This document shows, piece after piece, positions 1-40,323 of a stretch of 40,358 bases of DNA. The DNA comes from a virus (lineage: Duplodnaviria > Caudoviricetes), in IMG/VR virus record IMGVR_UViG_3300020181_000017, positions 1 to 40,358 of that record. One strand, written 5' to 3'. Each line of letters opens with the position of its first letter. Within the stretch, counting starts at the first letter, position 1. Made by a program: the position numbers and the translations under genes. The notes under the pieces are model-generated. The model was not told the origin of the DNA and searched no databases. It was given only the letters and a program-made list of their open reading frames with translations.

Positions 1-124
1 GGATGACAAAGCGGCAGGCGTGGGCGTTTGCGGTGAACTTCATCAAGCTCCCCGCCCTGCTGGTCAAAGACCGAGCTCCGCCAGCTTAGCTTTGTAGTGG
101 GCGATGCGCTCTTCGTATGGAAAT
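1..124. repeat. Terminal direct repeat, left copy (circular contig overlap)
   Basis: Bases 1-124 are identical to 40235-40358; the ORF at 40102-40323 and the 3' end of NinG both lie across it. Confidence 0.97.
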
Positions 125-468
125 GACGGGACGATCTCCCGGCGCTTGGCTTCCAGCCTAGCAACCGTCCCTGGCCCATGATCCTGCTCAAGCCGAACGG
201 CGTAGGCTCCTGGCTGGCCGTTGTAGAGCATGTTGCAGGCGTAGCATTGGACGTTGTTGTTCACCTCGTCATAGCGGAGCGCGAGGTACTGGCGGGGGAT
301 GAAGTGCCCGTTCTGCATTTTCCCCGGAAGATCCCTTCGAGGGCAGGTGTAGCAGGACACTAACCCATCACTTTCAACGGCTGAGTACCGGATGTAGCGG
401 GAGAAGAGGGTATCAAGCTCCTTCTTGAGTTTGGAGATGGATCGCTTCTTCGGTTTAGCGAGCTTCAT
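64..468 (-). CDS. ninG: NinG/Rap-family recombination endonuclease
   Basis: Pattern LDTLFSRYIR, CYTC, NGHF, LRYDEVN, QCYACN is typical of NinG. Confidence 0.85.
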   Translation of the reverse strand: MKLAKPKKRSISKLKKELDTLFSRYIRYSAVESDGLVSCYTCPRRDLPGKMQNGHFIPRQYLALRYDEVNNNVQCYACNMLYNGQPGAYAVRLEQDHGPGTVARLEAKRREIVPSFPYEERIAHYKAKLAELGL

Positions 469-689
469 AGCCCGATGGATTTAAGGGACGCTTCGAGTGC
501 GGCGTTCTCCTCGAATGAGGAGTGGATGACGTGGTGGCCGTCCTTGTCGGCTTCTACAGAAGGGCCACAAGGACATGTCAGCTTGTCCCAGTTATGGGGC
601 TTGATGTCACTCTGAGGCACTACCGCGTTGAAGCCTTCCAACCGAAAGACGATGTAGCCGCCATTCTTAGGAGCAATCCATCTTTTCAT
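465..689 (-). CDS. Small hypothetical protein with His/Cys cluster
   Basis: 74 aa with H..CPCGP..HHVIHS; ATGA overlap with ninG. Confidence 0.7.
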   Translation of the reverse strand: MKRWIAPKNGGYIVFRLEGFNAVVPQSDIKPHNWDKLTCPCGPSVEADKDGHHVIHSSFEENAALEASLKSIGL

Positions 690-985
690 AGGTGTTTAGA
701 TAAAGCCTCGCTTCCGATCAGTAGTAGATTGGGCGAGATTAGAACTATATGATACCAAGCCGGCTATCGTATTCTCCACTCATAACCAGTCTCCTACACT
801 CCGTGATGTAGGCTATCGCCCTCCGATGTGAACACCTGCTTCCGTCATCTTCTAGAAAGAGCCGGCGGCGTCTAGCGCACAGATGTTCACGTCGGAAGGG
901 AGTAGCGCCTGATGTGGACTTACAGTACGCGTTTATTTATCGAGAGGTGCGACTGAGATCTCTCTAGCTTGGTGTTCCAAACGTC

Positions 986-1012
986 AAAAACCCGCAGTCG
1001 TGAGACTACGGG
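986..1012 (-). terminator. Intrinsic terminator / attenuator
   Basis: Minus strand CCCGTAGTC-TCAC-GACTGCGGG followed by TTTTT. Confidence 0.65.
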
Positions 1013-1098
1013 CGTTTGACGGTGCTCATACCGGGAAATGAAGAAGCGTGGCTTCCGCGCTTTCCGGTAGGTACACTAATGTACTTTGGTATGAGCAT
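1006..1098 (-). CDS. Putative 30-aa leader peptide (MLIPKYISVPTGKRGSHASSFPGMSTVKRP)
   Basis: ATG 6 nt after a -10 box; the stop codon falls inside the terminator stem. Confidence 0.3.
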   Translation of the reverse strand: MLIPKYISVPTGKRGSHASSFPGMSTVKRP

Positions 1099-1104
1099 GG
1101 ATAC

Positions 1105-1150
1105 ATAGTACCCCCTGCTCACGTTCACTTGCAATCCGACCTGTTGATAA
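1105..1150 (-). promoter_or_regulatory. Sigma70-type promoter with upstream DnaA-box-like 9-mer
   Basis: TTATCAACA-7nt-TTGCAA-18nt-TACTAT on the minus strand. Confidence 0.6.
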
Positions 1151-1358
1151 CTTCTCGCGAAACGGCCTGCCGTAGCAGACCGTTCATGCGCGCAGTATGG
1201 CTAGCTGTTCGCTAGTGCCGTCTATTGTACTTATCGCGGATGAGCCGACGGTGAAGCACCGCAGCGACTACAAGGGTAGCTACGCAACGGTAAGAGCGGC
1301 ACAAAATACCCATTCACCCAGTTCGGATCGCGGTGTCCGAAGAGCCAGCAGATAATGT

Positions 1359-1649
1359 TCATACCCTTGGCTTAAGAGCTCCGAAGAACGCCTTGCTCCA
1401 CGCGCCCTTGCCCTCGCGCTCGTACCCGTCTGCCGCTGATTTGAGGTAGTAGAGATCCTCAAGGGTGAGACCGGGAGGCATACGTCCGCAAAGGCGGGGG
1501 ATCGTCCATCCTGTCTTCTGGCTGAAGTAGCGGAGCAGCTCCCCGCGCTCTGTCTGACGCTTCTTGGTAGGGACGACGCGGTACCGGCCGAAGAGATCGG
1601 TTGCAGACTGTATCTGGCTGACGGGTTCCTCGCGGTAGGGAGAGTTCAT
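1359..1649 (-). CDS. Hypothetical phage protein
   Basis: 96 aa, 3 nt from the upstream gene, same strand as neighbours. Confidence 0.7.
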   Translation of the reverse strand: MNSPYREEPVSQIQSATDLFGRYRVVPTKKRQTERGELLRYFSQKTGWTIPRLCGRMPPGLTLEDLYYLKSAADGYEREGKGAWSKAFFGALKPRV

Positions 1650-1652
1650 GGT

Positions 1653-1898
1653 CTATCCGCTACAATCATACTTTGAGTACCACCTGCAAACTGAACAACC
1701 CCGGATATTGACCGAACCTGTGTCGTTCGCTTGAACATCGAAGGTGACACGAGGGGCCTGCTGATTGTGTGCCTTTTGACGGCAATCCAGTACACGCTGA
1801 GGCGTCGCCGCCCAACCATTGTCCCAGCCGAGGAAGTGGAACCCCTCTTCCACGCAGGCGGCCTCCTGGCGGACGTACTCCTCGCGGTAGGGCCTCAT
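1653..1898 (-). CDS. Hypothetical Cys-containing protein
   Basis: 81 aa with CSVC; ATGA overlap with the RHH gene. Confidence 0.7.
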   Translation of the reverse strand: MRPYREEYVRQEAACVEEGFHFLGWDNGWAATPQRVLDCRQKAHNQQAPRVTFDVQANDTGSVNIRGCSVCRWYSKYDCSG

Positions 1899-2032
1899 AC
1901 ACCAAGGAGCTTATCCACCGTAGCGACGAGGCTGCGGCGCTCCGCACGAGCTACCTCCTTTAAAGCCTTGTGAGCCCTCCTGCTAATACGCACATTGATG
2001 AACTTGCTCTTGGCCGGTGCTGTTTTAGTCAT
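1895..2032 (-). CDS. Ribbon-helix-helix (Arc/CopG-like) regulator, 45 aa; below the ORF-track cutoff
   Basis: Hand translation MTKTAPAKSKFINVRISRRAHKALKEVARAERRSLVATVDKLLGV shows a beta strand (FINVRI), a helix, an ERRS turn and a second helix; -10 TAAGAT lies 6 nt before the ATG. Confidence 0.75.
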   Translation of the reverse strand: MTKTAPAKSKFINVRISRRAHKALKEVARAERRSLVATVDKLLGV

Positions 2033-2309: not shown

Positions 2310-2468
2310 ATGGACACACGAGACTACAGTGCGAAGGAGCTCGTAGAGCTCAACGTGCAGCCTGAGGATCGCGAGGTGCCTATCTGCGATCAGGGACCGG
2401 AGTACGACAAGTACGGGACCCGCAATTATTACGTCAGTCGGGACAACCTCGACTATCACATCTTCTGA
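2310..2468 (+). CDS. Small hypothetical protein (52 aa, MDTRDYSAKE...)
   Basis: Hand-translated; first ORF of a tightly packed plus-strand run. Confidence 0.55.
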   Translation: MDTRDYSAKELVELNVQPEDREVPICDQGPEYDKYGTRNYYVSRDNLDYHIF

Positions 2469-2469
2469 T

Positions 2470-2619
2470 ATGGTAAAGGTAACAATCAAGCGCCTCTCAG
2501 GGCTTCGTGAGACGGCAAAGAAGTGGGAGATAGGGCTCAAGAACGACGTATGGAATGGCAAGCCGCCTTTCCGCTACGTGGACATTGGGCACTCAGTAGC
2601 TAGCCGCAGATACCTATGA
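2470..2619 (+). CDS. Small hypothetical protein (49 aa, MVKVTIKRLS...)
   Basis: Hand-translated; 1 nt after the previous stop, ATGA overlap with the next gene. Confidence 0.55.
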   Translation: MVKVTIKRLSGLRETAKKWEIGLKNDVWNGKPPFRYVDIGHSVASRRYL

Positions 2620-2825
2620 GCCGCAAGAACCGGAGGAACCGTGAGCGCCGACCAGAGGTGAAGCAGGAGACTGGTAGAGAGGTGTTTCTACGATCCGGGA
2701 TCGCTGCCACGTTCGGGGAGAAGGTGGGGGTGGACATGCGCTCCACAGACGACCTGATGAACTGGCTGATCTTCGGCGACGACAAGCATTACTACGGGAG
2801 CCGTGCAGTTAATGATGGCTTCTAA
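2616..2825 (+). CDS. Small hypothetical protein
   Basis: 69 aa, coupled to neighbours. Confidence 0.6.
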   Translation: MSRKNRRNRERRPEVKQETGREVFLRSGIAATFGEKVGVDMRSTDDLMNWLIFGDDKHYYGSRAVNDGF

Positions 2826-2827
2826 AT

Positions 2828-2983
2828 ATGACCTACAACACTGAACGGGCAGAGGAGCTCTCCCTTGAGCGCACCCGCAAGATCAAAGAGAGCATGAGGC
2901 GCAGGGACGAAGAGCGGGCGATCGTCGTCCTTGTGGTAGCTCTCCTGGTGAGCATTATCGGCGTAGCGCACTTCGGAGTATGA
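2828..2983 (+). CDS. Small membrane protein (51 aa, C-terminal TM helix)
   Basis: Hand-translated; ends AIVVLVVALLVSIIGVAHFGV. Confidence 0.55.
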   Translation: MTYNTERAEELSLERTRKIKESMRRRDEERAIVVLVVALLVSIIGVAHFGV

Positions 2984-3050
2984 GCATATGGCCCGCTGTC
3001 ACATACGGGGCACTTCTGGGCATCGGTTCCTACATAGTAGCGTTCGCGTT

Positions 3051-3215
3051 ATGAGCCCCGCCGCACTAGCGCAGCGTGAGGATCTGATCCGCTGGGCACG
3101 CGAGTTCGTGGATGAGCGGTTCAACGCCTGGCTCCTAAGTGTGATGTGGTACCCACGGTATCAGCCGCTTGGGAAGGTCGCGGGGTATGCGTTTATGCAA
3201 AACATTGCACGTTAG
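3051..3215 (+). CDS. Small hypothetical protein
   Basis: MSPAALAQRE...; start uncertain (the ORF track begins at 2988). Confidence 0.45.
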   Translation: MSPAALAQREDLIRWAREFVDERFNAWLLSVMWYPRYQPLGKVAGYAFMQNIAR

Positions 3216-3217
3216 GT

Positions 3218-3382
3218 ATGGAGCCGCTCCAACAGCTCTGCTCCAAGCCTTCTGACGCACATTGGGTGACGATGGAGGATGTTGTTGAACATCTATTCCA
3301 TCTGACCCGCGCAGTGAACACCTTGATCGATGCTCACAACGGGAATGAGACACGCCCTATAGACGCTCACAATAAGCAATAA
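3218..3382 (+). CDS. Small hypothetical protein
   Basis: MEPLQQL...; starts 2 nt after the previous stop. Confidence 0.5.
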   Translation: MEPLQQLCSKPSDAHWVTMEDVVEHLFHLTRAVNTLIDAHNGNETRPIDAHNKQ

Positions 3383-3393
3383 CCAAAATACAT

Positions 3394-4119
3394 ATGCTGA
3401 CATCAGCAACACCAAACGGGCGCTACATCGGTATCAAGTCAGACGGTAAGTTCCACGAGAAGGTGGATGAGGGAACCGAGGGCGCGGTTCTCCGCAAGTA
3501 CGAGCTGAAGGACGGTACCAAGGGAGAGAAGTGGGAGCTCCTCTACCGCTCGATTGAGAAGGTGCGCATCACCAAGATCGAGTTCGAGACCGGCGACTTC
3601 GGAGAGAACATCCTCACGACCTTCTCGGACGGCAAGGATGAAGTCACCTGGTCGGAAGGCACGGGCACGAACTTCGGCACGGACTACATGAAGAAGCTCC
3701 CGAATGTGGACTTCTCGTACCCCGTGGCGGTGATGCCGTACGCGTTCGAGGATGAGCGCGGGAAGGAACGTCGCGGCGTCTCGATCTACCAGAACGGTGA
3801 CAAGATCACGAACTTCTTCTGGGATAGCGAGGCAGGTACCACCTGTAACGGCTTCCCTCAGCCTGAGGGTGACAAGGAGCTGTACGATAGCGACGACTGG
3901 AAGGTGTACTTCATCGGGGTCCGTAAGTTCCTCGTGGCCTTCATCAAGGAGAATGTCGTTCCGAAGGTGCGAGCGGCTGAGCCGAAGGAGTGGCCGATCG
4001 CTGAAGAGATCGAGGGCGAGAAGTTCGACAAGACCCCGGTACCGGGCAAGACGTACGCCAGCTCCAATCCCTCGCTAGATCAGGGTGAGGAGATCCGTCC
4101 CGAGGACGTTCCCTTCTAA
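3394..4119 (+). CDS. Putative ssDNA-binding / recombination accessory protein
   Basis: 241 aa, beta-rich with aromatic residues and an acidic tail EEIRPEDVPF resembling SSB C-termini. Confidence 0.55.
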   Translation: MLTSATPNGRYIGIKSDGKFHEKVDEGTEGAVLRKYELKDGTKGEKWELLYRSIEKVRITKIEFETGDFGENILTTFSDGKDEVTWSEGTGTNFGTDYMKKLPNVDFSYPVAVMPYAFEDERGKERRGVSIYQNGDKITNFFWDSEAGTTCNGFPQPEGDKELYDSDDWKVYFIGVRKFLVAFIKENVVPKVRAAEPKEWPIAEEIEGEKFDKTPVPGKTYASSNPSLDQGEEIRPEDVPF

Positions 4120-4129
4120 TCACATCACT

Positions 4130-4654
4130 ATGACTACATTCAAAGTGGGCGACGTATTAGAGGCCACTACGGCAGACGTCTCATCAACGTACAGACGCAT
4201 CACCCTGAAGCGGCTGAACGAGGACGGAAGATTTAGCTCGGGAGACATGTGGTGGACACCGGATTATTTGGAGAAGAACTTCCACGTAGTGAATAGCGAA
4301 CCGCAGGGGCCAATCGCCTTCATTCTCCAGTACGAACTGGATCATGATCCGTTCGAGACCTTCGCCACCATGAAGGAGGTAGAGGCTCGCATCAAAGAGC
4401 TAGCGAAGCGTGCGGACCTGAAGCGAGAGAGCATCAAGGTCTACGAGGTCGCGAAGACCTACCATGTGTCCTTAGACACCCGCGTGTTCTTCAACGCGCT
4501 CGCGACTGAGACTGGCGAGATCGAGGTAGCCGCTCCCAAGAGGAAGCGCGGTCGTCCGGTCGGATCGAAGACGAGCAAGTTCGCCAAGATCTCGCGGGCA
4601 CAGAAGGCGCGCTGGGCGAAGTGGCGGGAGGAGCGTGCCTCACAAGGCTTCTAA
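4130..4654 (+). CDS. Hypothetical protein with C-terminal AT-hook and basic helix
   Basis: KRKRGRPVGSK then KISRAQKARWAKWR; ATG at 4130 preferred. Confidence 0.7.
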   Translation: MTTFKVGDVLEATTADVSSTYRRITLKRLNEDGRFSSGDMWWTPDYLEKNFHVVNSEPQGPIAFILQYELDHDPFETFATMKEVEARIKELAKRADLKRESIKVYEVAKTYHVSLDTRVFFNALATETGEIEVAAPKRKRGRPVGSKTSKFAKISRAQKARWAKWREERASQGF

Positions 4655-4656
4655 CC

Positions 4657-5043
4657 ATGAGCGTCCGCGATACGAGCAAGGAAGCGTTCGCGAGCATCGG
4701 GGGTGAGCTGACCGAGCGCCAGGCCGCCGTGCTAGCCGTCCTTGAGCGCGGGAAGGCCCTCACGAACAGTGAGCTGGCGCACGAGCTGGCGTGGCCGATC
4801 AACACCGTCACGCCGCGCACACATGAGCTGCGGAGCCTTGGAAGGGTCTATGAGGCCGGAAAAAGGAAGTGCCGCGTCACAGGACGCAGAGCTTATCAGT
4901 GGGCTGCCGGGACAAAGCCTGTCGCCCCGCCTCCGCCAAAGGTGGAAGTGGTGATGGTGGATGGGCGGCCGGTGGCGCGAGTGGTTCAGGACTTACCTGC
5001 CGACTGGGCTCTGCAACGGCACATCAAGCCCTCAGAGGGGTAG
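4657..5043 (+). CDS. Winged helix-turn-helix DNA-binding protein
   Basis: LTERQAAVL..LTNSELAHELAWPINTVTPRTHELRSLGRV, a common phage wHTH pattern. Confidence 0.75.
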   Translation: MSVRDTSKEAFASIGGELTERQAAVLAVLERGKALTNSELAHELAWPINTVTPRTHELRSLGRVYEAGKRKCRVTGRRAYQWAAGTKPVAPPPPKVEVVMVDGRPVARVVQDLPADWALQRHIKPSEG

Positions 5044-5216
5044 CCCGTAATGCACAGCTCGACGCAAGATAGCACCCGCTCAGGGTGCTATTGTGTGTAT
5101 GCGCACTCTCTTAGGTGGACCATCGACAACTACAATCCCAGAACAGAAGAACTTATTTCCGTTCCCCACACCCTTAACTACCTGAGCCCTCGCACGAATA
5201 GCGAGGGTGCGCTTTG

Positions 5217-5741
5217 TTATAGGTGCTTAGCCCAGCCGCCTTGTGAGCCGTGGTACATGCTCCATCGCCAGTCCGTGAGACCGTTAGCGTCATAGATCTT
5301 GCGGGCGCACTTGATGTTGTCGGCGGCGTTGAAGACGTCACCCTCACACTTGTAGTTACGCCAGGTCTGCCGTGCGATCTGGAATACGCCCTCGGGACCT
5401 GTCCCGCTCTCCGCTAGGGGGTCTAGTTCGCTCTCATTTACGGCTACCCAGTACATGATGTGTCCCGGCCCGAACTCCGCCTCTATGGCCTGTTTTACGC
5501 CTTCTGGGCCTATATACGCACGAACCGCCTCCTTAGAGACGGTTGCCTGCGACTTGCCAGTGGTACCAGCCTTAGCTGGTGAAACGATTATACCTCCTGT
5601 CGCTGTGAGCGCGACCTGATCCGTAGCGTTACTGTGGACAAGAGGCGCGTCCACCGTCACTGCGCGAGCAACGAGTGAAACCATTGCGGCAAGTGCCGCG
5701 AAGCCTATGACGAGCAGTGATGCTGGGTGTAGGAATTTTAT
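5217..5741 (-). CDS. Lytic transglycosylase (SLT-like), probably secreted or signal-anchored
   Basis: VAVNES (catalytic Glu), GVFQI and NIKCARKIY motifs. First ATG is at 5684; an in-frame ATA at 5741 would add a hydrophobic signal. Confidence 0.75.
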   Translation of the reverse strand: MKFLHPASLLVIGFAALAAMVSLVARAVTVDAPLVHSNATDQVALTATGGIIVSPAKAGTTGKSQATVSKEAVRAYIGPEGVKQAIEAEFGPGHIMYWVAVNESELDPLAESGTGPEGVFQIARQTWRNYKCEGDVFNAADNIKCARKIYDANGLTDWRWSMYHGSQGGWAKHL

Positions 5742-5829
5742 ACGCTAGAGCGCACGTCGTTCAGGAGTTCTCACCGGACCTAGGGAAGCGACTAGCGACC
5801 CGTGCCGGATGCCGTTTCAGACGGGGAAA

Positions 5830-6108
5830 CTAGTCCTTCTTGAGAAGGTGATGTCCGCCCACCGAACCGAGGAAGAGAAGCGCGGCAAGGACGAGCTCGC
5901 TGATCGAGGTCTCGCTAACCGGATCGCCTCCGAGCATGAAGTAGATCGAGGCCATGACGACGGAGAACACCGCTGCGATCAGTCGGACGACGATCTTCCG
6001 CGTCTCCTCAGAGAGGTCGAAGACCGGGAGACGCTTAGTGGCGCTGGTAAGTCCGGTGACGATGAGCGGGAGCAGAACCGGAATAACGGCTGCGAGTATG
6101 TTGGTCAT
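5830..6108 (-). CDS. Holin-like membrane protein
   Basis: 92 aa, three hydrophobic segments and a basic C-terminus; lies between two muralytic genes. Confidence 0.65.
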   Translation of the reverse strand: MTNILAAVIPVLLPLIVTGLTSATKRLPVFDLSEETRKIVVRLIAAVFSVVMASIYFMLGGDPVSETSISELVLAALLFLGSVGGHHLLKKD

Positions 6109-6114
6109 AGACCC

Positions 6115-6804
6115 CTATTTTAACCCGAGCTTCTGCTTCAAAAGCGCGAGAACTGTGGACAAGAGGGATACCTGCTTCTTGAGCCCAGCCATGTAGTCAG
6201 CGACCGTGAGCTCCTTCATGAAGGGCATTGGCGAAATACAGCCGTTAGTTCCGTTCTCGTAGTTGATGATCTCGTAGTACCAGCCGTCGTGCTTCAGGAG
6301 GCCGGAGCCGTCTGAGAGATAGTGACGCTTCTTGTTCACGGTCTTTACCCGCCTAACGGGGCGCACCTGGGGGCCGTGAAGGTGAGTGCCCGCCTTGGAG
6401 CCTGCGAGCTTCTGCGCCTTCGTGACCAGCTTGCCCTTGGCGTAGACGGTGCCGGAGTTCCCGGCGGTCATGAGGATGTCGCCCACCTGGTAGGTCTTAC
6501 CCACCTCAGCGAGGACCTTGTGCGCGTGGCCGTAGGAGATCTCGGCCCAGTCTGAGAGGCCGTTGTCGGCGTTCACCAGCGTGAAGACTGCGCGGTATTT
6601 GTCGGGATCGGGGTTGTCCCGGTTCATGACCGAATAGCAGAAGGCGTTCCTGGCGAGGTTCGGGACAGGCTCGCCGTGCTCGTAGGCCCAGTCGATCGTC
6701 GTGTGCCCGATGAGGCCAGTCTTGGCGTAGCTCTCGTTGGCGTTCTCGGAAAAGCCTTGGGTGATCCTGGCGAGTGAGACCGGAAGGTAAAGAGATAGTT
6801 TCAT
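6115..6804 (-). CDS. M23-family peptidase-like endolysin
   Basis: GHTTID (HxxxD), YGH, AGNSG and HLH zinc motifs. Confidence 0.75.
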   Translation of the reverse strand: MKLSLYLPVSLARITQGFSENANESYAKTGLIGHTTIDWAYEHGEPVPNLARNAFCYSVMNRDNPDPDKYRAVFTLVNADNGLSDWAEISYGHAHKVLAEVGKTYQVGDILMTAGNSGTVYAKGKLVTKAQKLAGSKAGTHLHGPQVRPVRRVKTVNKKRHYLSDGSGLLKHDGWYYEIINYENGTNGCISPMPFMKELTVADYMAGLKKQVSLLSTVLALLKQKLGLK

Positions 6805-6808
6805 AGGT

Positions 6809-7243
6809 TTAGGCAGCGGGGCCGCCGTCGATTGTTAGGTTCTGAGGCACAAGGGCTTTCAGCCTGTCATTCTCGGCTTCGAGTGCGTCCACACGCTTTT
6901 CTAGGGTCTCGATCTGAGTGGTGAGCTGTGACTTCTCGATGTTATGCGAGGAGACGATATTCTTGAGCTTGTCCTCATGCTCCATCATGAGGGTCTTCAT
7001 CTCTAGCTCGTGCGCCGCGCGCTCTGCTCCGAGCTGTAGATCCTTCTTCTCCAAGCGCTTGTCCAGTTCGTCGAGGCGCTTTTCGAGCTTGTCCGAGTAC
7101 CGACGCCAACCGGCTGACGCCACCTCATCCGTTTCCGCCCGGATGCGGCCCTTGTTCGCCAGGTACTTGAGGAACGTTACGAACGCCGTACCTGAGAAGA
7201 AGGCGACGAGCACCGCACCGATCTGGGCGGCTAGCTCGTTCAT
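6809..7243 (-). CDS. Membrane-anchored coiled-coil protein (lysis region)
   Basis: N-terminal TM helix followed by long heptad repeats. Confidence 0.7.
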   Translation of the reverse strand: MNELAAQIGAVLVAFFSGTAFVTFLKYLANKGRIRAETDEVASAGWRRYSDKLEKRLDELDKRLEKKDLQLGAERAAHELEMKTLMMEHEDKLKNIVSSHNIEKSQLTTQIETLEKRVDALEAENDRLKALVPQNLTIDGGPAA

Positions 7244-8994: not shown

Positions 8995-8996
8995 AG

Positions 8997-29986: not shown

Positions 29987-29992
29987 TGTGCA

Positions 29993-30965: not shown

Positions 30966-30972
30966 TTCACAC

Positions 30973-32019: not shown

Positions 32020-32105
32020 AGATCGAGAGGTTAGCGCCGGGATTTTAGGTGTAACCGTTCGCCATGGGCAGGATGTGCACAGTGCTACGCGGTGGCGCTA
32101 TATGA

Positions 32106-34085: not shown

Positions 34086-34714
34086 CAGCGCACTTGGAAG
34101 CTGGAGAGCATGAACAAGACAGACGTGAACAGCAAGAAAGCCAAGAGTAGCAGTATGCCGATCCCGTTGAAGCCATCGTCCGCCTTCTTTTGCGCCGCAG
34201 CTTCTGGCGCAACCCTCTGCACGAAGAGGGAGGCTTCCTCCGGCGCAGCTAAGCTAGGTTGGGGAGCAACCTGGACAGGTGGCAATGGACGGGTGGGCAT
34301 GGGCTCGGCGCGGGCGACCACCTCCCCCGTCTCCATGTCGATCACCTGCTCCTGACCCTGGAAATAGTTCGCTTCCTTGATGCGGGAGTGGAGCAGCTTC
34401 GCGTTCGCTCTGATCTCGTTCTCGACCTCGATCAGCTCCTCGAACCGGCCGCTCTCGATGACGTGGCCGCGCTCAAGGCTCTCGGCGGTGATGTTGATCA
34501 CGAAGCCCTTCAGCTCTGGAAACACTCCCGTGACGACGGACCCGAAGAGGTTGGAGCCCTTGGTGACGTCCTTCAGCCAGATGGAGGTCGCGACCTGGCA
34601 GATGGGGAAATACCCCACCTTGCGGAGGTTCTGCTTCTCCTCGTCGGAGTAGTCTGCGCGGACCTCAAGCCTGAATTTTTTCCCGACCTCAGAGCGCTTT
34701 ATTTTGAGCTGCAT
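34085..34714 (-). CDS. Hypothetical protein with C-terminal TM anchor
   Basis: Start MQLKIK with SD GAGGGG; Pro-rich linker, then IGILLLLAFLLFTSVLFML; TGATG-coupled to the ATPase. Confidence 0.7.
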   Translation of the reverse strand: MQLKIKRSEVGKKFRLEVRADYSDEEKQNLRKVGYFPICQVATSIWLKDVTKGSNLFGSVVTGVFPELKGFVINITAESLERGHVIESGRFEELIEVENEIRANAKLLHSRIKEANYFQGQEQVIDMETGEVVARAEPMPTRPLPPVQVAPQPSLAAPEEASLFVQRVAPEAAAQKKADDGFNGIGILLLLAFLLFTSVLFMLSSFQVR

Positions 34715-34757
34715 CGGTTTTTCCCCCTCGGCAGGGGAACGCCGCTCTCTGGAACTG

Positions 34758-35522
34758 TCAAGCGCTGCGCATGTACGCGTCTCGGTCTGCGAGGAAGCCC
34801 TCGGTGCCGCGTGCAAACTTCGAGGTGTAGAGGGCCAGGAGGTCTGCATCGTCAGAGTTGCAGCGGCTGCCCACTTTCGTAGGGAAGGACAGGAGGCGGT
34901 GCTTCCAGTCAGGCAGCTCCTCGAACGCGCTGACCCCGGCGATGAGCCGGTTCTGTCGCATCAGACGCGCATGACCCTGGTGGGCGTAGAAGCCGAAGTC
35001 CGGGATCACGACCGGCCCCTCGTATTGAGAGATCAGGAAGTTCGCGAGCACGAAGCTGTCAAAGTCGCCTAGTACCGATCGGTCGAGTTTGGCGAGTATG
35101 ATGCCTTTGAAAGAGATGTTGGTGGGTCGTGTGAGCACGTCCTTCAGTACGGGTGACAGGAGTAGTGTCTGTATCGTCTGGTAGGCGTGCTCGGTTTCCC
35201 TGCTATCACGAATGAGCGTCTCCAGGTCAGTTGGCTCGTTGAGGAGGGATCGTAGTATCTGAAAGCGTGAGCGCTGTTTGGTGAGTGTATTCTCCCCTTC
35301 CGGGAACACAGCATCGAGAACGGAGACAAACTCCCGTGCCTTTCGGTAGTCGAGGTCAGCCAGCGGATTGAACGAGTGTTTTGAAACGTCGAACCGAACC
35401 ACCTGATAGTGGTCGGGAAAGGTGAGCCGATCGGAAAACTCGCCGTCGTCGATCAGCAGAAACCGCTCGGAAAAGTATCGTGAGATCGGCGCTTTGTCGC
35501 TGCCGAGAATGAGTACGTTCAT
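34758..35522 (-). CDS. Miniaturised, degenerate VirD4/TrwB-like paralog
   Basis: Colinear remnants NVLILGSDK, FLLIDDG, SFNPL, IILAKLDRSVLG and VVIPDF match the neighbouring ATPase, but Walker A and B are broken. Confidence 0.65.
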   Translation of the reverse strand: MNVLILGSDKAPISRYFSERFLLIDDGEFSDRLTFPDHYQVVRFDVSKHSFNPLADLDYRKAREFVSVLDAVFPEGENTLTKQRSRFQILRSLLNEPTDLETLIRDSRETEHAYQTIQTLLLSPVLKDVLTRPTNISFKGIILAKLDRSVLGDFDSFVLANFLISQYEGPVVIPDFGFYAHQGHARLMRQNRLIAGVSAFEELPDWKHRLLSFPTKVGSRCNSDDADLLALYTSKFARGTEGFLADRDAYMRSA

Positions 35523-35525
35523 TGT

Positions 35526-35883
35526 GTGGGTCGGTGGAGTAGAGCCTCGCTTCGGGAAGGGGTGCTCCCGCCGACCACGAAACGAAGAACTCCCACACCA
35601 TTGTAAACGGTAGAGGTCCCACTTCCCTTCCCCGTGGGGGGAGAGAGCAAGGGGAAGGGGGTCCCCGCAATGGGGGATAGGGAAGGAGTAGAAGGGGGCA
35701 AACGGTACAGTGACCGCACCGTTTCGTCTGTGGTCCCGTAAGGGCCACGACCCATGGGGTTTTTCGTAAGAATAAAGCACATGGGTCGTGGCCGTGAGGC
35801 CATGCGAAACGGTGCGGAATCAGTGTGTTGTCGGGGTTATCCCCGGCATACAGTATGGTAAGGCGTATGGTCGGCTCGTATGC
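35526..35883 (+). other. Highly structured non-coding region (candidate oriT / single-strand origin or RNA)
   Basis: Six or more hairpins, including a four-way junction at 35714-35817 with GTAA/GTAA/GTGA loops, and a G-rich tract. Confidence 0.55.
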
Positions 35884-35884
35884 G

Positions 35885-35893
35885 TGGTACACT
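35885..35893 (+). promoter_or_regulatory. Extended -10 promoter upstream of the candidate ncRNA
   Basis: TGGTACACT, the same form as TGGTATAGT, TGGTATACT and TGTTACACT elsewhere in the genome. Confidence 0.5.
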
Positions 35894-35899
35894 GCCGCT

Positions 35900-36330
35900 A
35901 GGAAGTGGAGGGTTGTTGTGGCGCGGGTTAGCGGTTGTCTCTCTTAGCCCTATCAGCCGAAGCAGATAAGACGGACGGGCACTGGACCGAGTTTCTGCAA
36001 GAGATGAGGAGCGTATACGCGAGGGTTAGACGCCCTCCCCGTGCCCCACTAGCCCTTCACCGACAGTTCGAGTGCAGATGGGGGAATGAGATACCGGAGC
36101 CGTACTAGCGCGCGGCATGGGACCCAGCTTGGGTCGCCGGACGAGGATGCTTTCCCCTCGTCGTTCCCCACCTGCGCTGGAACGGTTCGAGGATAGACGG
36201 GGGAGTGTAATGCAGTGCGAGGCTGCGCGCGCAGCAACGTCTGCTAAAGCGGTAGAGGTTAGCGACCTCGGGGCACTCCACCGCCTGACCTTGAACATGA
36301 AAAAGCCCCGCGATGGTCTGCGGGGCTTTG
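35900..36330 (+). ncRNA. Candidate ~430-nt structured ncRNA of unknown class
   Basis: Promoter, end-closing stem, nested long-range helices with G-U pairs on the plus strand, terminal hairpin, no credible ORF. Confidence 0.6.
36301..36330. terminator. Bidirectional intrinsic terminator
   Basis: AAAGCCCCGC-8nt-GCGGGGCTTT, between the ncRNA candidate and the convergent H-NS-like gene. Confidence 0.7.
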
Positions 36331-36350
36331 TCGTACTCGTACGGTAGGTG

Positions 36351-36779
36351 TCAGGCCGCGATGTAAAGGCCATCCTTCTGAGCGATGGTGTTGGCCTTCT
36401 TGAGGGCTGCGAGCGCGTTAGAGACGCTCTGTTCCGCCGACTTGTTGCCCTTAGCATCGAGCTTGGCGAGTACGTCTGCGCGGCTGATGCCGTCGCCGCT
36501 CTCCTTCACAATCGAGAGCACCTGGTCACGGATACCAGTGCGCCGGGTACCGCCGCCAAGCGTGCTACCTCCGGAAAGGGTGCTGCCGCCGGAAAGCGTC
36601 ATGGCGCTTCCGGACTGCCGATTGCCCTCCACGAGCCGATAGGTGAAACCGAGAACGCGTAGCTCCTCGATCGCGGCGTTAGCGCGGTTGAGAGCCTCCT
36701 GCTTAGCCTGCTCGCGCAGTTGGTTCTTCTGCTCTTCGAGCTCGCGGATCTGGGCGTCGATCTCTTCGAGAGTAGGCAT
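36351..36779 (-). CDS. H-NS-like oligomerisation domain fused to a winged helix
   Basis: MPTLEEIDAQIRELEEQKNQLREQAKQEAL N-terminus; C-terminal IRDQVL..GISRADVL..VSNAL..LY; SD AGGAG. Confidence 0.65.
   Translation of the reverse strand: MPTLEEIDAQIRELEEQKNQLREQAKQEALNRANAAIEELRVLGFTYRLVEGNRQSGSAMTLSGGSTLSGGSTLGGGTRRTGIRDQVLSIVKESGDGISRADVLAKLDAKGNKSAEQSVSNALAALKKANTIAQKDGLYIAA
36546..36599 (-). repeat. 3 x 18-bp coding tandem repeat (TLSGGS TLSGGS TLGGGT)
   Basis: Seen directly in the linker of the H-NS-like gene. Confidence 0.85.
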
Positions 36780-36828
36780 GGTACGTCTCCTGCTGTGGTG
36801 CTCCTCTAGCAGTATCCCATGTAAAAGA

Positions 36829-36855
36829 AAGCCCCCGGCGATGAACCGGGGGCTT
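36829..36855 (-). terminator. Terminator after alpA
   Basis: AAGCCCCCGG-7nt-CCGGGGGCTT followed by TCTTTT on the minus strand. Confidence 0.65.
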
Positions 36856-36865
36856 AGTGGCTCCG

Positions 36866-37060
36866 CTAGGAGCCGGGGTTGGCATCTGTCGAGAACTTGG
36901 ATTGCTGCCATTCCTCAATGTCAGAGGCTCGCCACGCTACCCTTCCGGTGCCCAGACGTACCCGCTTAGGGAATTGTCCAGCGGCCTCCAGGCGCGCTAT
37001 GTGTGCTCTGCAATAAGGTACGTAGCTCTTCAGCTCTTTCGCAGTGATTAGCCGTTCCAT
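36866..37060 (-). CDS. alpA: AlpA-family regulator / excisionase
   Basis: RLITAKEL..IARLEAAGQFPKRVRLG..RVAWRASDIEEW; directly downstream of the integrase; SD GGAG. Confidence 0.88.
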   Translation of the reverse strand: MERLITAKELKSYVPYCRAHIARLEAAGQFPKRVRLGTGRVAWRASDIEEWQQSKFSTDANPGS

Positions 37061-37100
37061 CACGGTACTCCAATGAGGAGCATCGCGATGCATCCGGCGA

Positions 37101-38204
37101 TTACCGGACGAGCAACCATACCAGGGCTTCTTCGATCTTGCGAAGCGCTTCTCGCTTTTGTGGGAGGTAGCTCCACTGATCGTAGATCGCGTCGAGGTCT
37201 TTGGGTGCGTGGTTGAGAAGGTGCTCCGCGATGTCTCGGGGAACCCCTACCCTCGCTGCAAGGCTGCGGAAGGTGCGCCGTAGATCGTGAGGCGTCCAAC
37301 CGCTGGTGCCGGATCGTTTCTGTACGGTGGCGACCACCTGGGACAACCCACGCGGGGTGATGTGCCCCTCCCCCCACCTGCCGGGGAAGAAGTGCTGGTG
37401 GTTGTGCTTCGGTAGGATGTGCTCCGCCAGCGGCCCAAAGGGGATTGAGTGGGTTCTCCCGTTCTTCGTGTGGTCGCCAGGGATCGTGAGCACCCCCTGG
37501 AAGGCCCAGGATTGCTCCAGGACGCACGTTTCCTGCCTGCGGGTACCGAAGAGCAGCATCGCCCGCACAGCGGCCTCTGAAGGGCCTGTACAGGCGTGCC
37601 AGACGGCGACGACCTCCTCGTCAGTGAGGATGCGGGTCTTCTTCCTGTCCTTGCCGGGTGCCTCGTAGCCCGTGAGGGGACTGTAGCGGAGGTAGCGGCG
37701 GGGAGCGCGGACGCACCAGTTGAAGAAGGTCCGCAAATAGCGGAAGGCGTGGAGCTGTTCGCTCGGTCGGTCCTTCAGCTTGTCGAGGCAGCGCTTGATG
37801 TCGGCGTCCTCGATGTCCGCGAGCTGCATCGGCTCAAGGTGCTTGAAGTGCAGCTTGAGGGCGCGGGAGACCTGGTACTTCGTCCCCTCGCTCTTGTCGG
37901 CGTAGTGGGCGTCGAGGAACTCGTCTCGGGCCTCGCGGAAGCACTTGTGTTGTGACTTGTGCTGCCACTTAGGTTCTTCGGCTAAGAGCTTCTTGGCCTC
38001 AAGGCGCGCGGCGCTGAGAGGAAGGTCGGGGTATTGGCCGATCGTCACGAGCTCACGCGAGCGGCCTCGCATACAGACCCACGTCTTCGTGTGCTTCCCA
38101 ACGCGGATGCCAAAGCCCCGCGTGGTCTTGCACATGTAACGGATGGGAGGGGTACCGCCTTTGAGGGCGCGCACCGCCACGTCAGTGAGATGCACGACCG
38201 GCAT
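37101..38204 (-). CDS. int: Tyrosine integrase with N-terminal arm-binding domain
   Basis: Catalytic R (GTRRQE), K (TKNG), HDLRR, LNH and Y; N-terminus LTDVAVRAL..GFGIRV; start MPVVH with SD GGAG. Confidence 0.93.
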   Translation of the reverse strand: MPVVHLTDVAVRALKGGTPPIRYMCKTTRGFGIRVGKHTKTWVCMRGRSRELVTIGQYPDLPLSAARLEAKKLLAEEPKWQHKSQHKCFREARDEFLDAHYADKSEGTKYQVSRALKLHFKHLEPMQLADIEDADIKRCLDKLKDRPSEQLHAFRYLRTFFNWCVRAPRRYLRYSPLTGYEAPGKDRKKTRILTDEEVVAVWHACTGPSEAAVRAMLLFGTRRQETCVLEQSWAFQGVLTIPGDHTKNGRTHSIPFGPLAEHILPKHNHQHFFPGRWGEGHITPRGLSQVVATVQKRSGTSGWTPHDLRRTFRSLAARVGVPRDIAEHLLNHAPKDLDAIYDQWSYLPQKREALRKIEEALVWLLVR

Positions 38205-38206
38205 CG

Positions 38207-38460
38207 TTTGTCTCCTTTTTGTCTCGCAATCCCAAGGAACAGGGACTGGACACAGTGTAACGCCATGAGCAGGTCGCTCTGGCGAAACGGTCAATGGAAA
38301 CAGATGGATGCCGGTCAGTATGAGCGCGTATGTGCGCTATGAGGAGGTATCACTTTTTTGCTTGGAAGGCTGCTGCACTACCATTGTGCTATACCCGCCA
38401 AGTCAGTGACTTAGCCAAACTCCGTCGTTCCATTTGTCTCGTTTTTGTCTCCCAAACCCA
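38207..38460. other. attP region: tRNA-derived core flanked by arm-type repeats
   Basis: 28-bp direct repeats (25/28 identical) at 38207-38234 and 38433-38460, each holding two TTTGTCTC copies at 11-bp spacing, flank the tRNA fragment. Confidence 0.8.
38360..38398 (-). pseudogene. 5' half of tRNA-Gly(TCC), the attP core
   Basis: GCGGGTATAGCACAATGGTAGTGCAGCAGCCTTCCAAGC: acceptor 5' strand, D arm and anticodon loop CTTCCAA, then an abrupt break; no T arm. Confidence 0.88.
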
Positions 38461-38498
38461 GGCGGGCTCGGAGGCGCGCGGTTCTGGCACAAGCTGCC

Positions 38499-39101
38499 TT
38501 AGATCGCAATGTCCTCGGGGAGCTGCTCGTAGATCTCCCGGAACGCCTCGCGCGGATCAGCGCCAAGGGCACGGACGTACGCCACGAACTCCACCACATC
38601 GAGCCGGCGGAGCTTGTTCTCCACCCGCGACACGAACTGCTGGCCCTTGCCGAGGCGCTTCGCCACGTCAGCCTGATGGAGGCCGCGTTTCGCGCGGAGA
38701 CCAGCTACCAGGGACCGTACGAGATCGTAGTGGTCGGCCGGTGACTTCTGCTGGGCCTGGAACGCTGCTGGGATCGCAAGCTCAAATGGATGTGGCTCAT
38801 AGCGCGAGAAGAGTATCGAGCGGTTTGAAGACACGTGCGCCGGCAGCGTCGCACGCCTTCGGTCGTTGCACGGCCAGCAGACAATCTGGATGTTCGAGAT
38901 GGTGTGTGCACCACCCTTTGTAAGCGGTGTGATGTGGTCTGGCGACGGAAGTTCCGGTAACGGCTCTTGGCAAAGTGCACAGATCCATCCCTGTGCTTCT
39001 TGCAACTTCGAAAGTGATGTGTCGGTGATTGTACCGTCGTCAGTCAGCGCTATCTGTTCCGCCCGGCTACGCTTCAGGTGATTGGCATATCCTGCGTACA
39101 T
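38499..39101 (-). CDS. HNH endonuclease fused to an XRE-family HTH
   Basis: CALC..DHITPLTKGG.HTISNIQIVCWPCN, then LRAKRGLHQADVAKRLGK..FVSRVE; leaderless start after TGTTACACT. Confidence 0.8.
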   Translation of the reverse strand: MYAGYANHLKRSRAEQIALTDDGTITDTSLSKLQEAQGWICALCQEPLPELPSPDHITPLTKGGAHTISNIQIVCWPCNDRRRATLPAHVSSNRSILFSRYEPHPFELAIPAAFQAQQKSPADHYDLVRSLVAGLRAKRGLHQADVAKRLGKGQQFVSRVENKLRRLDVVEFVAYVRALGADPREAFREIYEQLPEDIAI

Positions 39102-39120
39102 AGAAACAGTGTAACATACA

Positions 39121-39378
39121 CTAAATCCGAGTATCACCAGGAACGTCCCTGACGATAGTTCGCAGAAGCTCAACGGGATCAGCACCTAAGGCGCGCGCAT
39201 AGACGCAGAACTCTACTATATCGAGCCGACGTACGCGGTTCTCGACCTTCGACACAAACTGCTGATGCTTACCGAGACGCTTGGCTACGTCAGATTGCAA
39301 GAGCCCGCGCTCTTTCCGCAACTGGATCAAATGCTCAACGGCTGAACTGTACGCGTCGGAGTGCACTGAGGCCGGCAT
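39121..39378 (-). CDS. XRE-family HTH regulator
   Basis: LRKERGLLQSDVAKRLGKHQQFVSKVENRVRRLDIVEF. Confidence 0.9.
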   Translation of the reverse strand: MPASVHSDAYSSAVEHLIQLRKERGLLQSDVAKRLGKHQQFVSKVENRVRRLDIVEFCVYARALGADPVELLRTIVRDVPGDTRI

Positions 39379-39492
39379 AGCGAGGCTTCCGCTTGAAAGC
39401 CAAGCTGAATATGCGCGTGGGAAGCGAACCCGCTTTTGGGGAACCCGATGTTCGGGTACGGTAGCCCTAAGATCATCTCAAAGGGGCTTTTC

Positions 39493-40017
39493 ATGCTTAG
39501 TCGGGCAATCGCGGGTATCGCCGCCGCGCTCTCCATTTCGTCGGCGGCTTCGGCCGCTGACTTCATCGGCTACGTCTCCGTCACAGGCGGGACCGTGGCG
39601 CACTTCGAGGAGCTCGGGGCGCAGTTTCCTGGCGCTATCTGGACGAGCGTGCTGGCCGCTAAGGGCACGTTCCCCGCGCAAGAAGACTGCTTCCCATCCG
39701 GCTTCACTCCGACCGACGCGTGCCGACAGGAAACGGTGGGCGGAGAGTTCCTCGCGGATCGGGGAGCGGAGGATCTGAACCAGCTCTTCAACTCCGGCCT
39801 CGACGACGGACAGAACGGCACGGGGCCGGCTGACTTCTGGATCGCGTACACACTCGATACCGGGGACCGGGTGGTGACGACCTTCCACCGCGTGGACGCC
39901 GACACCTGGACCAGCCCTACGCAAGCCATTCCCGAACCTGCGACCTGGGCGCTCATGATCCTGGGCTTTGGGAGCGTGGGCGCGATGATGCGACGGCGGA
40001 GGCTGGTCCCGGACTAG
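39493..40017 (+). CDS. PEPxxWA-CTERM surface protein (exosortase substrate)
   Basis: Signal peptide plus C-terminal IPEPATWALMILGFGSVGAMMRRRR. Confidence 0.9.
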   Translation: MLSRAIAGIAAALSISSAASAADFIGYVSVTGGTVAHFEELGAQFPGAIWTSVLAAKGTFPAQEDCFPSGFTPTDACRQETVGGEFLADRGAEDLNQLFNSGLDDGQNGTGPADFWIAYTLDTGDRVVTTFHRVDADTWTSPTQAIPEPATWALMILGFGSVGAMMRRRRLVPD

Positions 40018-40030
40018 CTACCGCTCACCT

Positions 40031-40058
40031 GGGGGTCGCTTCGGCGGCCCTCTTTTTT
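40031..40058 (+). terminator. Intrinsic terminator
   Basis: GGGGGTCGC-TTCG-GCGGCCCTC followed by TTTTTT. Confidence 0.8.
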
Positions 40059-40101
40059 GGCTCCGCTTGAGAACGTTTGGAGAACGCCGTAGGGGTAGCG
40101 G

Positions 40102-40323
40102 ATGCCTTCCCGTTTTCCGCCACCCTGGTGGATCGAAGATACCGGGCACGCCTTCGCGGTGAAGGACGCGACCGGCTTCGCCCTCACCTGGTTTCACTAC
40201 GCGACGCACGATGTCGTCGGGACGAACCCGGATCGGATGACAAAGCGGCAGGCGTGGGCGTTTGCGGTGAACTTCATCAAGCTCCCCGCCCTGCTGGTCA
40301 AAGACCGAGCTCCGCCAGCTTAG
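40102..40323 (+). CDS. Small hypothetical protein (RFPPPW motif)
   Basis: 73 aa; resembles, from memory, small proteins of alphaproteobacterial islands; overlaps the ninG 3' end across the circular junction. Confidence 0.65.
   Translation: MPSRFPPPWWIEDTGHAFAVKDATGFALTWFHYATHDVVGTNPDRMTKRQAWAFAVNFIKLPALLVKDRAPPA

Follow-up and report, generated by a model that had tools for sequence, protein, structure and literature searches.

How does a single phage genome come to carry two kinds of translation start, and in which cell, or cells, would such a phage live? The question is raised by a stretch of 40,358 nucleotides, the IMG/VR virus record IMGVR_UViG_3300020181_000017, called the window in the following. 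It represents a complete circular phage genome of 40,234 bp with a terminal repeat of 124 bp (IMG/VR class "direct terminal repeats", 100% complete) and 58% GC throughout. A podovirus-type chassis (positions 64-27,900), comprising the large terminase subunit (TerL), SU10-type portal and adaptor, capsid, tail, lysis and early genes, adjoins an integration and mobilisation module (28,376-40,017) with DUF932 and CHC2 genes, a gene for a 58-aa protein, a relaxase, a coupling ATPase and its partner gene, a degenerate ATPase, AlpA, an integrase, half a tRNA-Gly and a PEPxxWA-CTERM gene. The original prediction, made from the letters alone, took the two sets of starts, speculatively, as a sign of a possible shuttle between an alphaproteobacterium and a Patescibacteria-like partner that makes little use of Shine-Dalgarno (SD) signals. 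We conclude with high confidence that the architecture is genuine: a phage of Patescibacteria type has been joined to a mobilisable island and resides in proteobacterial chromosomes. We further consider it somewhat probable that the phage is lysogenic in an alphaproteobacterium, forms particles in a Patescibacteria epibiont and has its DNA passed on by cell contact.

Two kinds of translation start

SD signals were scored as pairing energy (dG) with the 8-nt anti-SD at 54 hand-set starts, -5 kcal/mol or better being counted as SD. SD-positive starts amount to 2/40 in the phage core and 9/14 in the module (Fisher p=1.7e-5), and a plain motif count (GGAG, GAGG or AGGA at -16 to -5) gives 2/40 versus 8/14. 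Since 17.8% of all 936 ATGs in the genome reach the same threshold, the core lies below chance for SD. All five SD-less leaders quoted in the original prediction are in place (major capsid protein, MCP, 21056; portal, 24542; adaptor, 19900; SSB-like, 3394; yopX, 29864), and the six SD-led starts are real (int -8.0, alpA -5.9, H-NS-like -7.4, DUF932 -7.2, CHC2 -10.0 and DUF736-like -11.6 kcal/mol). The sets interleave as described, with SD-less HNH and yopX genes between the SD-led DUF932 and CHC2 genes. Three details changed: T at -1 (72% of the 40 core starts) is a stronger mark of the core leaders than richness in A; the int GGAG lies inside the arm-type repeat GAGACAAA and is weaker evidence than the other SDs; and the labels "H-NS-like", "DUF736-like" and "SSB-like" found no named Pfam, NCBIfam or PHROG match.

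The halves are alike in other respects. GC at third codon positions (GC3) is 0.72 and 0.76, relative synonymous codon usage correlates at r=0.975, and neither codon usage nor CTAG nor tetranucleotide signatures separate the two halves of the window. In the assembly of the source run, the genome forms a single 40,255-nt unitig of flat depth 14.5, which branches solely at the tRNA half and has no joint but the circular one; this unitig stems from the same sample as the window and is not biologically independent of it. Among sequencing runs, the genome was listed for one DNA run, possibly the source itself, and for no RNA run.

One mobilisable module on five chassis types

An exact search of IMG/VR for the tRNA half returned 15 stretches; in one of them, the circular 44-kb G001, the same module is joined to another SD-less chassis. 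A coupling-protein profile added six viral records, five of the same build (G411-G414 and G416; three classed as proviruses, integrase at the edge); G415 is an SD-led prophage with a phage-free island whose coupling protein belongs to the island clade. In an alphaproteobacterial family sample (the family of G766), 8/251 genomes match the profile, and the six matches read comprise two composites and four phage-free islands; a class-wide sample of 251 genomes gave five matches, and the one read is an island without virion genes. The two best family matches, G1043 and G1096, are intact prophages of 38.3 and 38.6 kb between housekeeping genes, bounded by att duplications of 47 and 46 bp at the ends of tRNA-Met and tRNA-Lys. 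GcrA is present in both genomes, whereas PF18895 pilins, which serve to mark the type IV system of Patescibacteria (PMC12102498), are absent from them. Lysogeny in alphaproteobacteria, one part of the original interpretation, is thereby borne out by relatives of the window.

Together with the window, these composite elements number nine (window, G001, G411-G414, G416, G1043, G1096), with one module order on five unrelated SD-less chassis types: a shared-gene matrix separates five groups, in which podovirus groups have 0-4 genes in common with one another and members of the siphovirus group up to 21. The coupling proteins of all nine cluster in a single clade (SH-aLRT 99, in quick tree searches with midpoint roots), whose sister consists of alphaproteobacterial islands and a Sulfitobacter plasmid; three homologues from Patescibacteria chromosomes stand far apart. 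Among the best 120 coupling-protein homologues, the organism-named ones are alphaproteobacterial in 8/8 cases (Sphingomonas, Parerythrobacter, Novosphingobium, Bradyrhizobium). Because one coupling-protein clade spans five chassis groups, a single alphaproteobacterial mobilisable module has been joined to SD-less phages several times, or swapped between them. The module occurs on SD-less chassis only, in 7/7 phage-borne cases among viral records and in both prophages. The module of the window reads as follows, with SD counts over the composites.

28376-29095, minus strand: DUF932 protein, SD-led (PF06067; SD in 8/8 where found)
29135-29864, minus strand: HNH (29135-29503) and YopX (29487-29864) genes, SD-less among SD-led genes (PF13392, PF09643)
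29993-30658, minus strand: CHC2 zinc-finger protein with primase-type N-terminus, SD-led (PF01807; SD in 9/9)
30789-30965, plus strand: 58-aa "DUF736-like" protein, SD-led, without family match (conserved in 9/9, SD in 9/9)
31081-32019, minus strand: Replic_Relax relaxase of MOBC type, SD-less (Atlas PF13814 by features 0.94; structure TM 0.78)
32051-32066, minus strand: conserved non-coding block in the relaxase leader, candidate transfer origin (alignment of nine leaders)
32106-34085, minus strand: VirD4/TrwB-type coupling ATPase with intact Walker A and B, start overlapping the upstream stop (PF10412, PF01935)
34085-34714, minus strand: 209-aa coupling-protein partner, strongly SD-led (SD in 7/7 where found)
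34758-35522, minus strand: degenerate ATPase, SD-less (by alignment; SD in 0/8)
35523-35605, minus strand: structured leader of the degenerate-ATPase operon (-10 box 35600-35605; helix of 35565-35576 with 35528-35539, ending just before the AUG)
36351-36779, minus strand: 142-aa "H-NS-like" protein, SD-led, without family match (SD in 3/3 having it)
36866-37060, minus strand: AlpA-type likely excisionase, SD-led (PF05930, phrog_2790; SD in 8/8)
37101-38204, minus strand: tyrosine integrase with arm-binding domain (PF13356 and PF00589; 72% identical to that of G001, 52-54% to those of G411 and G412)
38360-38398, minus strand: attP core, the first 39 nt of an alphaproteobacterial tRNA-Gly(TCC), flanked by arm-type repeats (38207-38225, 38433-38451)
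39493-40017, plus strand: PEPxxWA-CTERM surface protein, SD-led cargo (NF035944; SD-led also in G001 and G411)

The relaxase keeps the residues D187 and E206 of its PD...E-x-R motif, invariant in 12/12 aligned proteins. Relaxases of the other composites are only 25-38% identical to it; homologues from five relatives (G1043, G1096, G412 and G414 among them) pass the PF13814 cut-off, and the window's own protein has no direct Pfam match. A relaxase profile gave no credible match against the PDB, two repeat-protein matches being judged spurious. No VirB-type mating-pair genes were found among the 54 window proteins. The pair of partner and coupling genes recurs in phage-free islands and on the Sulfitobacter plasmid. 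By its alignment, the degenerate ATPase is the homologue of the islands' second small ATPase, with Walker A lost. Its leader is kept in the window, G001, G411-G414, G1043 and G1096; across these eight elements 92% of cells in the helix are paired and 5/11 pairs have changed on both sides, a value that 0/500 shuffles reach. An alternative upstream helix (87% paired, one compensatory pair) is equalled by 109/500 shuffles. The two helices may be mutually exclusive and so form a two-state switch, and the leader may act as a translational switch for the coupling operon; no Rfam family matched it at gathering score. In relatives, the block at 32051-32066 lies behind an extended -10 box; a consensus fold was not found in the alignment of the nine relaxase leaders.

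At the integration site, the 39 nt match a Pseudomonadota locus, in keeping with the marker named in the original prediction: the tRNA-Gly half is identical to the gene in the rlmB-tRNA-Tyr-tRNA-Gly locus of 2/201 sampled Pseudomonadota genomes, of which one was tested and is GcrA-positive. Other prophages use the same 5' half. Paired GAGACAAA repeats flank the att core, and one overlaps the integrase SD, so that the integrase might regulate its own translation or transcription. Searching plasmids and cultured phages for the integrase yielded distant matches only, and the alpA region resembles a Ruegeria Rfam entry at a score below gathering. The PEPxxWA-CTERM assignment stands (52.1 bits for a cut-off of 35); NF035944 gave no match in any genome searched, five alphaproteobacterial ones included. 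Within the phylum of G008, which is probably not Pseudomonadota, the coupling-protein profile matched 0/401, the tRNA pattern 0/121 and NF035944 0/51 genomes, negatives that are uninformative.

Additional genes accompany the module in relatives. An ArdC-type anti-restriction gene lies beside it in G414 (14700-15545, SD-led) and G001 (8461-9042), as in plasmid leading regions; PvuII-type and Eco29kI-type restriction-modification cargo and a TIR-domain gene are found at the module edges of G412, G413, G1043 and G1096. Three further elements (G1523, G1524, G1525) combine the same SD-less siphovirus chassis with other SD-led integrase/DUF932/CHC2 modules, that of G1525 also with coupling ATPases and a PF13814 relaxase, and show no strong depletion of GANTC. 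They likely follow the same strategy with second hosts outside Alphaproteobacteria.

The split extends across the composites. With automatic starts chosen regardless of SD in genes of at least 80 aa, chassis leaders show SD in 13/258 and T at -1 in 131/223 (59%), with T at 11-14% at -2 and -3 and GC3 of 0.74. The Patescibacteria prophage of G612, described below, has the same signature (SD 2/36, T(-1) 22/33). Four alphaproteobacterial control sets are unlike the composite chassis, with SD at 45-61% and T(-1) at 0-20%: host genes (53/117; 2/43), tRNA-Gly-matched phage loci (108/196; 4/62), a cultured Bradyrhizobium phage (22/44; 0/17) and a Rhizobium phage (25/41; 2/10), the MCPs of both cultured phages being SD-led. 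Composite MCPs are SD-less in 7/8 checked, and the integrase is SD-led in 5/5 (three at a record edge and one of another clade left out). Leaderless transcription was rejected as a general cause: a TANNNT box stands at leaderless distance before 12% of the 223 chassis starts versus 7-8% in alphaproteobacterial sets, so most SD-less starts are leadered or coupled. That the relaxase and the degenerate ATPase are themselves SD-less had been entered as a caveat in the original prediction and has become support. They are SD-led in 0/9 and 0/8 composites, whereas relaxases of phage-free islands are SD-led in 3/5 (p=0.027). We infer that chassis genes and relaxase would still be under selection in a second, SD-poor cell, because T(-1), at a position where alphaproteobacterial genes avoid T, was kept although GC elsewhere in the leaders moved to 50%, and because the relaxase, by descent alphaproteobacterial, lost its SD.

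A second signature concerns GANTC, the CcrM methylation site (PMC3287173). The window contains six sites, 0.04 of expectation, the next rarest palindrome of that shape standing at 0.48. The ratio is 0.00-0.53 in both halves of all nine composites, and 0.78-1.10 in Patescibacteria regions and module-less relatives; G1524 and G1525, with the siphovirus chassis and a different SD-led integrase module, have 0.88 and 0.92. Depletion is alike in both halves of the composites, and the chassis has thus been copied in alphaproteobacteria for long.

Source of the virion chassis

Terminase, portal, capsid and tail genes of the window are present and intact. Had the phage been an ordinary alphaproteobacterial one, as the original prediction considered, its structural proteins would nest among such phages; among 50,697 phage records they have no close cultured relative, the best MCP piece reaching 36% and TerL 50% over half its length. 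The MCP has 756 homologues, none organism-named among the best 120. In its clade, 26 of the 27 loci examined have 30-46% GC, with nearly all genes SD-less and GANTC ratios of 0.54-1.84, and G002 is a complete member without the module. High GC was rejected as a marker of alphaproteobacterial residence, since locus L028 (MCP 81%, 60% GC, 4 kb) has a normal GANTC ratio of 0.95. One close contig in GTDB (6.9 kb; TerL 65%, portal 59%) lies in the metagenome-assembled genome (MAG) G007, which has eight PF18895 pilins; the phylum sampled around it is called Patescibacteria, an assignment based on genomes of ~0.6-2 Mb, PF18895 pilins and absence of GcrA. The second close MAG, G006, is binned as Lactobacillales and contains a 17-kb SD-less contig (SD 0/8) of the window capsid clade, probably mis-binned. 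PF13814 was found in 0/5 genomes with MCP matches, a search in which no positive control gave signal. SD-led G1517, with a distant MCP, was set aside as unrelated.

The siphovirus chassis type is native to Patescibacteria, which is shown for one of the five chassis types and bears out the other part of the original interpretation to that extent. A true prophage of this type was found in 1/236 genomes of the phylum of G007 (G612), and a phage-only contig in 1/134 genomes of one class (G1516). The G612 prophage lies in a 146-kb contig between ribosomal-protein genes and murB/murG/secA-type cell-wall genes, has its own integrase and lacks the module; the genome measures 1.1 Mb, with eight PF18895 pilins and no GcrA. 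Its tail tube is 44-46%, its protease 45-46% and its MCP 29-34% identical to those of the composite siphovirus chassis. At ~718,500-730,000 of G621:C1, inside a complete chromosome of the Patescibacteria phylum, lies an SU10-type head and neck operon without terminase or integrase, which may be a remnant or a domesticated particle. Tail tubes 71-75% identical to that of G1043 (P0333, P0347, P0384) are named from a Nitrosomonas MAG, a gammaproteobacterial isolate and a Bauldia MAG, where their contigs measure 95-565 kb, and a protein identical to the G1043 tail tube is named from the cultured species Parerythrobacter lacustris.

The remaining features of the window are as follows.

1-124, copy at 40235-40358, strandless: terminal repeat of the circular assembly (IMG/VR class)
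64-468, minus strand: NinG/Rap endonuclease, SD-less (PF05766, phrog_5034; dG -1.1)
1895-2032, minus strand: 45-aa likely regulator at the early/late divergence, presumably of ribbon-helix-helix fold by its sequence pattern (open reading frame listing)
2310-5043, plus strand: early operon of small SD-less genes (241-aa "SSB-like" gene 3394-4119; phrog_1123 gene 4657-5043)
5217-7560, minus strand: lysis region (SLT transglycosylase 5217-5684, start uncertain; likely holin 5830-6108; lysin 6115-6804; two membrane/coiled-coil genes)
7563-19900, minus strand: podovirus-type tail, fibre and likely nozzle, all SD-less (phrog_6651, phrog_4900, phrog_3287, PF24175; dG 0 to -1.9)
10935-14792 and 14796-16577, minus strand: likely ejection proteins within the SD-less tail region
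16579-17718, minus strand: tail protein, matching one encoded by the G612 Patescibacteria prophage with 40% identity over 230 aa
19274-19900, minus strand: SU10-type adaptor, SD-less (SU10-type neck family PF24175)
19962-21056, minus strand: MCP with SD-less leader (phrog_267, E 5.5e-32)
21095-26508, minus strand: likely scaffold, SU10-type portal (22845-24542), TerL (24918-26213) and small terminase subunit TerS (26143-26508), all SD-less (family matches)
38499-39378, minus strand: HNH-HTH fusion (38499-39101) and small HTH_3 protein (39121-39378), SD-less or weak (family matches, anti-SD energy)

The lysin is 46-47% identical to M23-type lysins of G412 and G1096. A spanin scan found no lipoprotein near the lysis genes of the nine composites, and none either in two cultured alphaproteobacterial phages, and is too insensitive. 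No replication initiator or polymerase is recognisable anywhere in the window genome; ~540 bp without a credible open reading frame (690-1230) form a possible origin. A lambda-type CI repressor (HTH and S24 peptidase) was found neither in the 54 window proteins nor in 145 selected proteins of relatives, and no HTH_3 protein among the scanned proteins of G1043 and G1096; in the window, the small HTH_3 and likely ribbon-helix-helix proteins could serve as repressor. The G001 chassis includes an SD-less chaperonin gene of the Cpn60 family (4263-5984) with a small neighbour (5987-6253).

A cycle in two cells, its rivals and known systems

The two-host cycle that we favour would run in five steps. 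A virion would infect a Patescibacteria cell, whose ribosomes suit SD-less leaders with T(-1). The SD-less relaxase and degenerate ATPase would be made there and would act together with the coupling protein to hand the genome over to the attached host. Because the element encodes no mating channel, the DNA would presumably cross by the relaxase-poor type IV system that the epibiont itself possesses. Such systems are reported to be mostly without relaxase, 109 relaxases in 103 Patescibacteria genomes comparing with 5,713 coupling proteins in 2,918 (PMC12102498). In the host, the SD-led integrase would insert the genome at tRNA-Gly, and the SD-led cargo (PEPxxWA-CTERM, CHC2, DUF932) would be expressed while the virion genes would be poorly translated. 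Copying mostly as prophage would then give the whole genome its alphaproteobacterial base composition. Finally, SD-led AlpA and integrase would excise the element, and the circle would return to the attached epibiont by the same contact or by DNA uptake; limited replication of a host prophage in an epibiont has been reported (PMC13578794). The two gene classes are observed, and integration is seen in two relatives; each transfer step is inferred, with relaxase and coupling protein as likely carriers of the DNA across the junction. The direction of the transfer to the host and the route of return are the weakest links.

Several observations weigh against this cycle. The window chassis is close in 1/301 genomes of the Patescibacteria phylum; in the GTDB scan, two close loci were among the 80 kept, both short MAG contigs, none integrated. 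Its ties to Patescibacteria are one binned contig, the G621 remnant (MCP 28%) and one 40% tail protein. Four of the best 120 tail-tube homologues are organism-named, all proteobacterial and none from Patescibacteria. SD-led genes occur in Patescibacteria regions as well (37/241 sampled). Translation of the coupling protein is tied to that of a gene with a strong SD, so a donor role in the alphaproteobacterium, for the outbound trip, may suit it rather than one in the epibiont. To our knowledge, no Patescibacteria epibiont of an alphaproteobacterium has been cultured.

Much of the remaining contrary evidence serves the alternative that survives best, a completed host switch, which we regard as unlikely though far from negligible. 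Patescibacteria-derived phages would have taken up an alphaproteobacterial island and now run their whole cycle in proteobacteria, with the leaders as working relics; relaxase and coupling protein would spread the prophage among proteobacteria with helper conjugation systems. Mobilisable elements with their own coupling protein are reported to use diverse helper channels (PMC12282955). The GANTC loss fits such a switch equally well, because an ordinary cultured Rhizobium phage has 0 GANTC sites in 45 kb, and the loss is genome-wide, along with matching codon use in the two halves. The tight tail-tube clade is named only from alpha-, beta- and gammaproteobacteria, and the G412 MCP has a short-spaced, SD-like GGAG (-6.1). 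SD-less genes can be read in alphaproteobacteria, since recognised classes of leaderless and non-SD mRNAs are described for C. crescentus (PMC8459731) and 15/22 virion and lysis genes of the cultured Bradyrhizobium phage fall below the SD threshold. Against the switch, the leaders have T(-1) at 59% despite a drift to 50% GC, compared with 5-6% in alphaproteobacterial genes, and lie below chance for SD on five independent chassis types. The relaxase, alphaproteobacterial by descent, is SD-less in 9/9 composites and SD-led in 3/5 islands, and the module is confined to SD-less chassis, the SD-led prophage G415 having the island clade instead.

A two-host cycle whose SD-less partner, for this phage, is not a Patescibacterium but, for example, a Bacteroidota predator or neighbour appears highly unlikely. 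The leaders of Flavobacterium phage 11b show matching statistics (SD 1/42, T(-1) 24/39), which also counts against the Patescibacteria assignment, and the window chassis is linked to that phylum by the 6.9-kb binned contig, the distant SU10-type remnant and the one shared tail protein. Yet the siphovirus chassis type, joined to the same module in composites, is a native prophage, there without the module, in a Patescibacteria chromosome, and the cultured-phage and GTDB searches gave no MCP or TerL relative from Bacteroidota phages or genomes. Slightly more improbable still is a one-way sink, in which Patescibacteria phage DNA enters the host, is caught by the island integrase and stays as cargo without further particles. 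Silent virion genes would fit the absence of a CI-type repressor with peptidase domain from the 145 selected proteins and of HTH_3 proteins from those of G1043 and G1096. Against it, elements in different hosts have intact virion genes of 60-85% identity, the window is a circle in which attP is joined, and chassis and module have become alike in base composition, for which a long shared descent is required. An assembly chimera of a Patescibacteria phage and an alphaproteobacterial island, suggested by the differing ancestry of the halves and raised in the original prediction as a matter for long reads, is rejected, its probability being practically nil: the single unitig is joined solely at the circle, eight more elements share the build, two of them inside chromosomal contigs with att duplications, and GANTC loss is equal in both halves.

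Beyond the window, it is quite possible, if a little short of probable, that the two-host cycle extends to a widespread class of obligate two-host phages, Patescibacteria phages having repeatedly adopted one mobilisation-integration module to cross the epibiont-host junction. In that tentative picture they would be stored as prophages in proteobacteria, or with other modules in other phyla, each gene being written in the dialect of the cell where it acts. If true, the life style of these phages would depend on cells from two phyla, and they would be natural ferries of DNA between Patescibacteria and the host bacteria; the host lineages of uncultured Patescibacteria could be read from att sites and prophages, and the conserved Patescibacteria type IV system would be shown to move DNA. 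Even a host switch would amount to a repeated cross-phylum host jump via a captured mobilisable island. On composite genomes, predictions of the host contradict each other when att sites, GC or SD content are used singly.

In the literature found, with subscription journals outside coverage, neither a phage with a relaxase-coupling module bridging Patescibacteria and proteobacteria nor the composite architecture itself is described. The closest parallel is Xhp1, a prophage of Schaalia odontolytica XH001 that also infects Nanosynbacter lyticus TM7x: likewise, a prophage of the larger host can form particles in the attached Patescibacteria cell. By that report, Xhp1 has a fully productive cycle in the actinobacterium and reaches TM7x as a virion, particles being seen in ~1-2% of cells, and the accessible part of the text describes no relaxase, coupling protein or split of translation signals (PMC13578794). 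In the window family, by contrast, it is the virion genes that belong to the Patescibacteria-phage type, and a mobilisable island has been grafted on as the host-side module. The phages of Liu et al., co-targeted by spacers of Candidate Phyla Radiation (CPR) and non-CPR bacteria, are alike in that their DNA apparently meets an epibiont and another bacterium, and a translation barrier is raised there; the evidence consists of spacers and genetic code for 23 phages of Saccharibacteria, Absconditabacteria and Gracilibacteria, and the part available mentions neither a transfer or integration module nor alphaproteobacteria (PMC10746230). Mobilisable elements and plasmids with a Replic_Relax relaxase and their own coupling protein share the integrase, excisionase, relaxase and lack of a mating channel, as far as described (PMC12282955). 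The window has these features of an integrative mobilisable element, namely integrase, excisionase, a predicted relaxase with catalytic residues, a coupling protein and no mating-pair genes. It differs from them in that the composite cargo is a whole intact tailed-phage genome, the second ATPase is degenerate behind a new structured leader and the relaxase SD has been lost. Native temperate Patescibacteria phages (the G612 prophage; RSA-ATP1 and related phages) resemble the composites in SD-less virion operons, siphovirus head and tail homology and size, but integrate in the Patescibacteria chromosome with their own integrase, have 35-40% GC and, as far as the accessible descriptions go, lack both relaxase and coupling protein; an epibiont and its host have also been described as each having a phage of its own (PMC13059738). 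With SU10/Kuravirus-type podoviruses, finally, the window has the portal and adaptor families in common (PF23899, PF24175), a kinship at fold level only, no cultured phage exceeding 37% for MCP or 50% over half of TerL.

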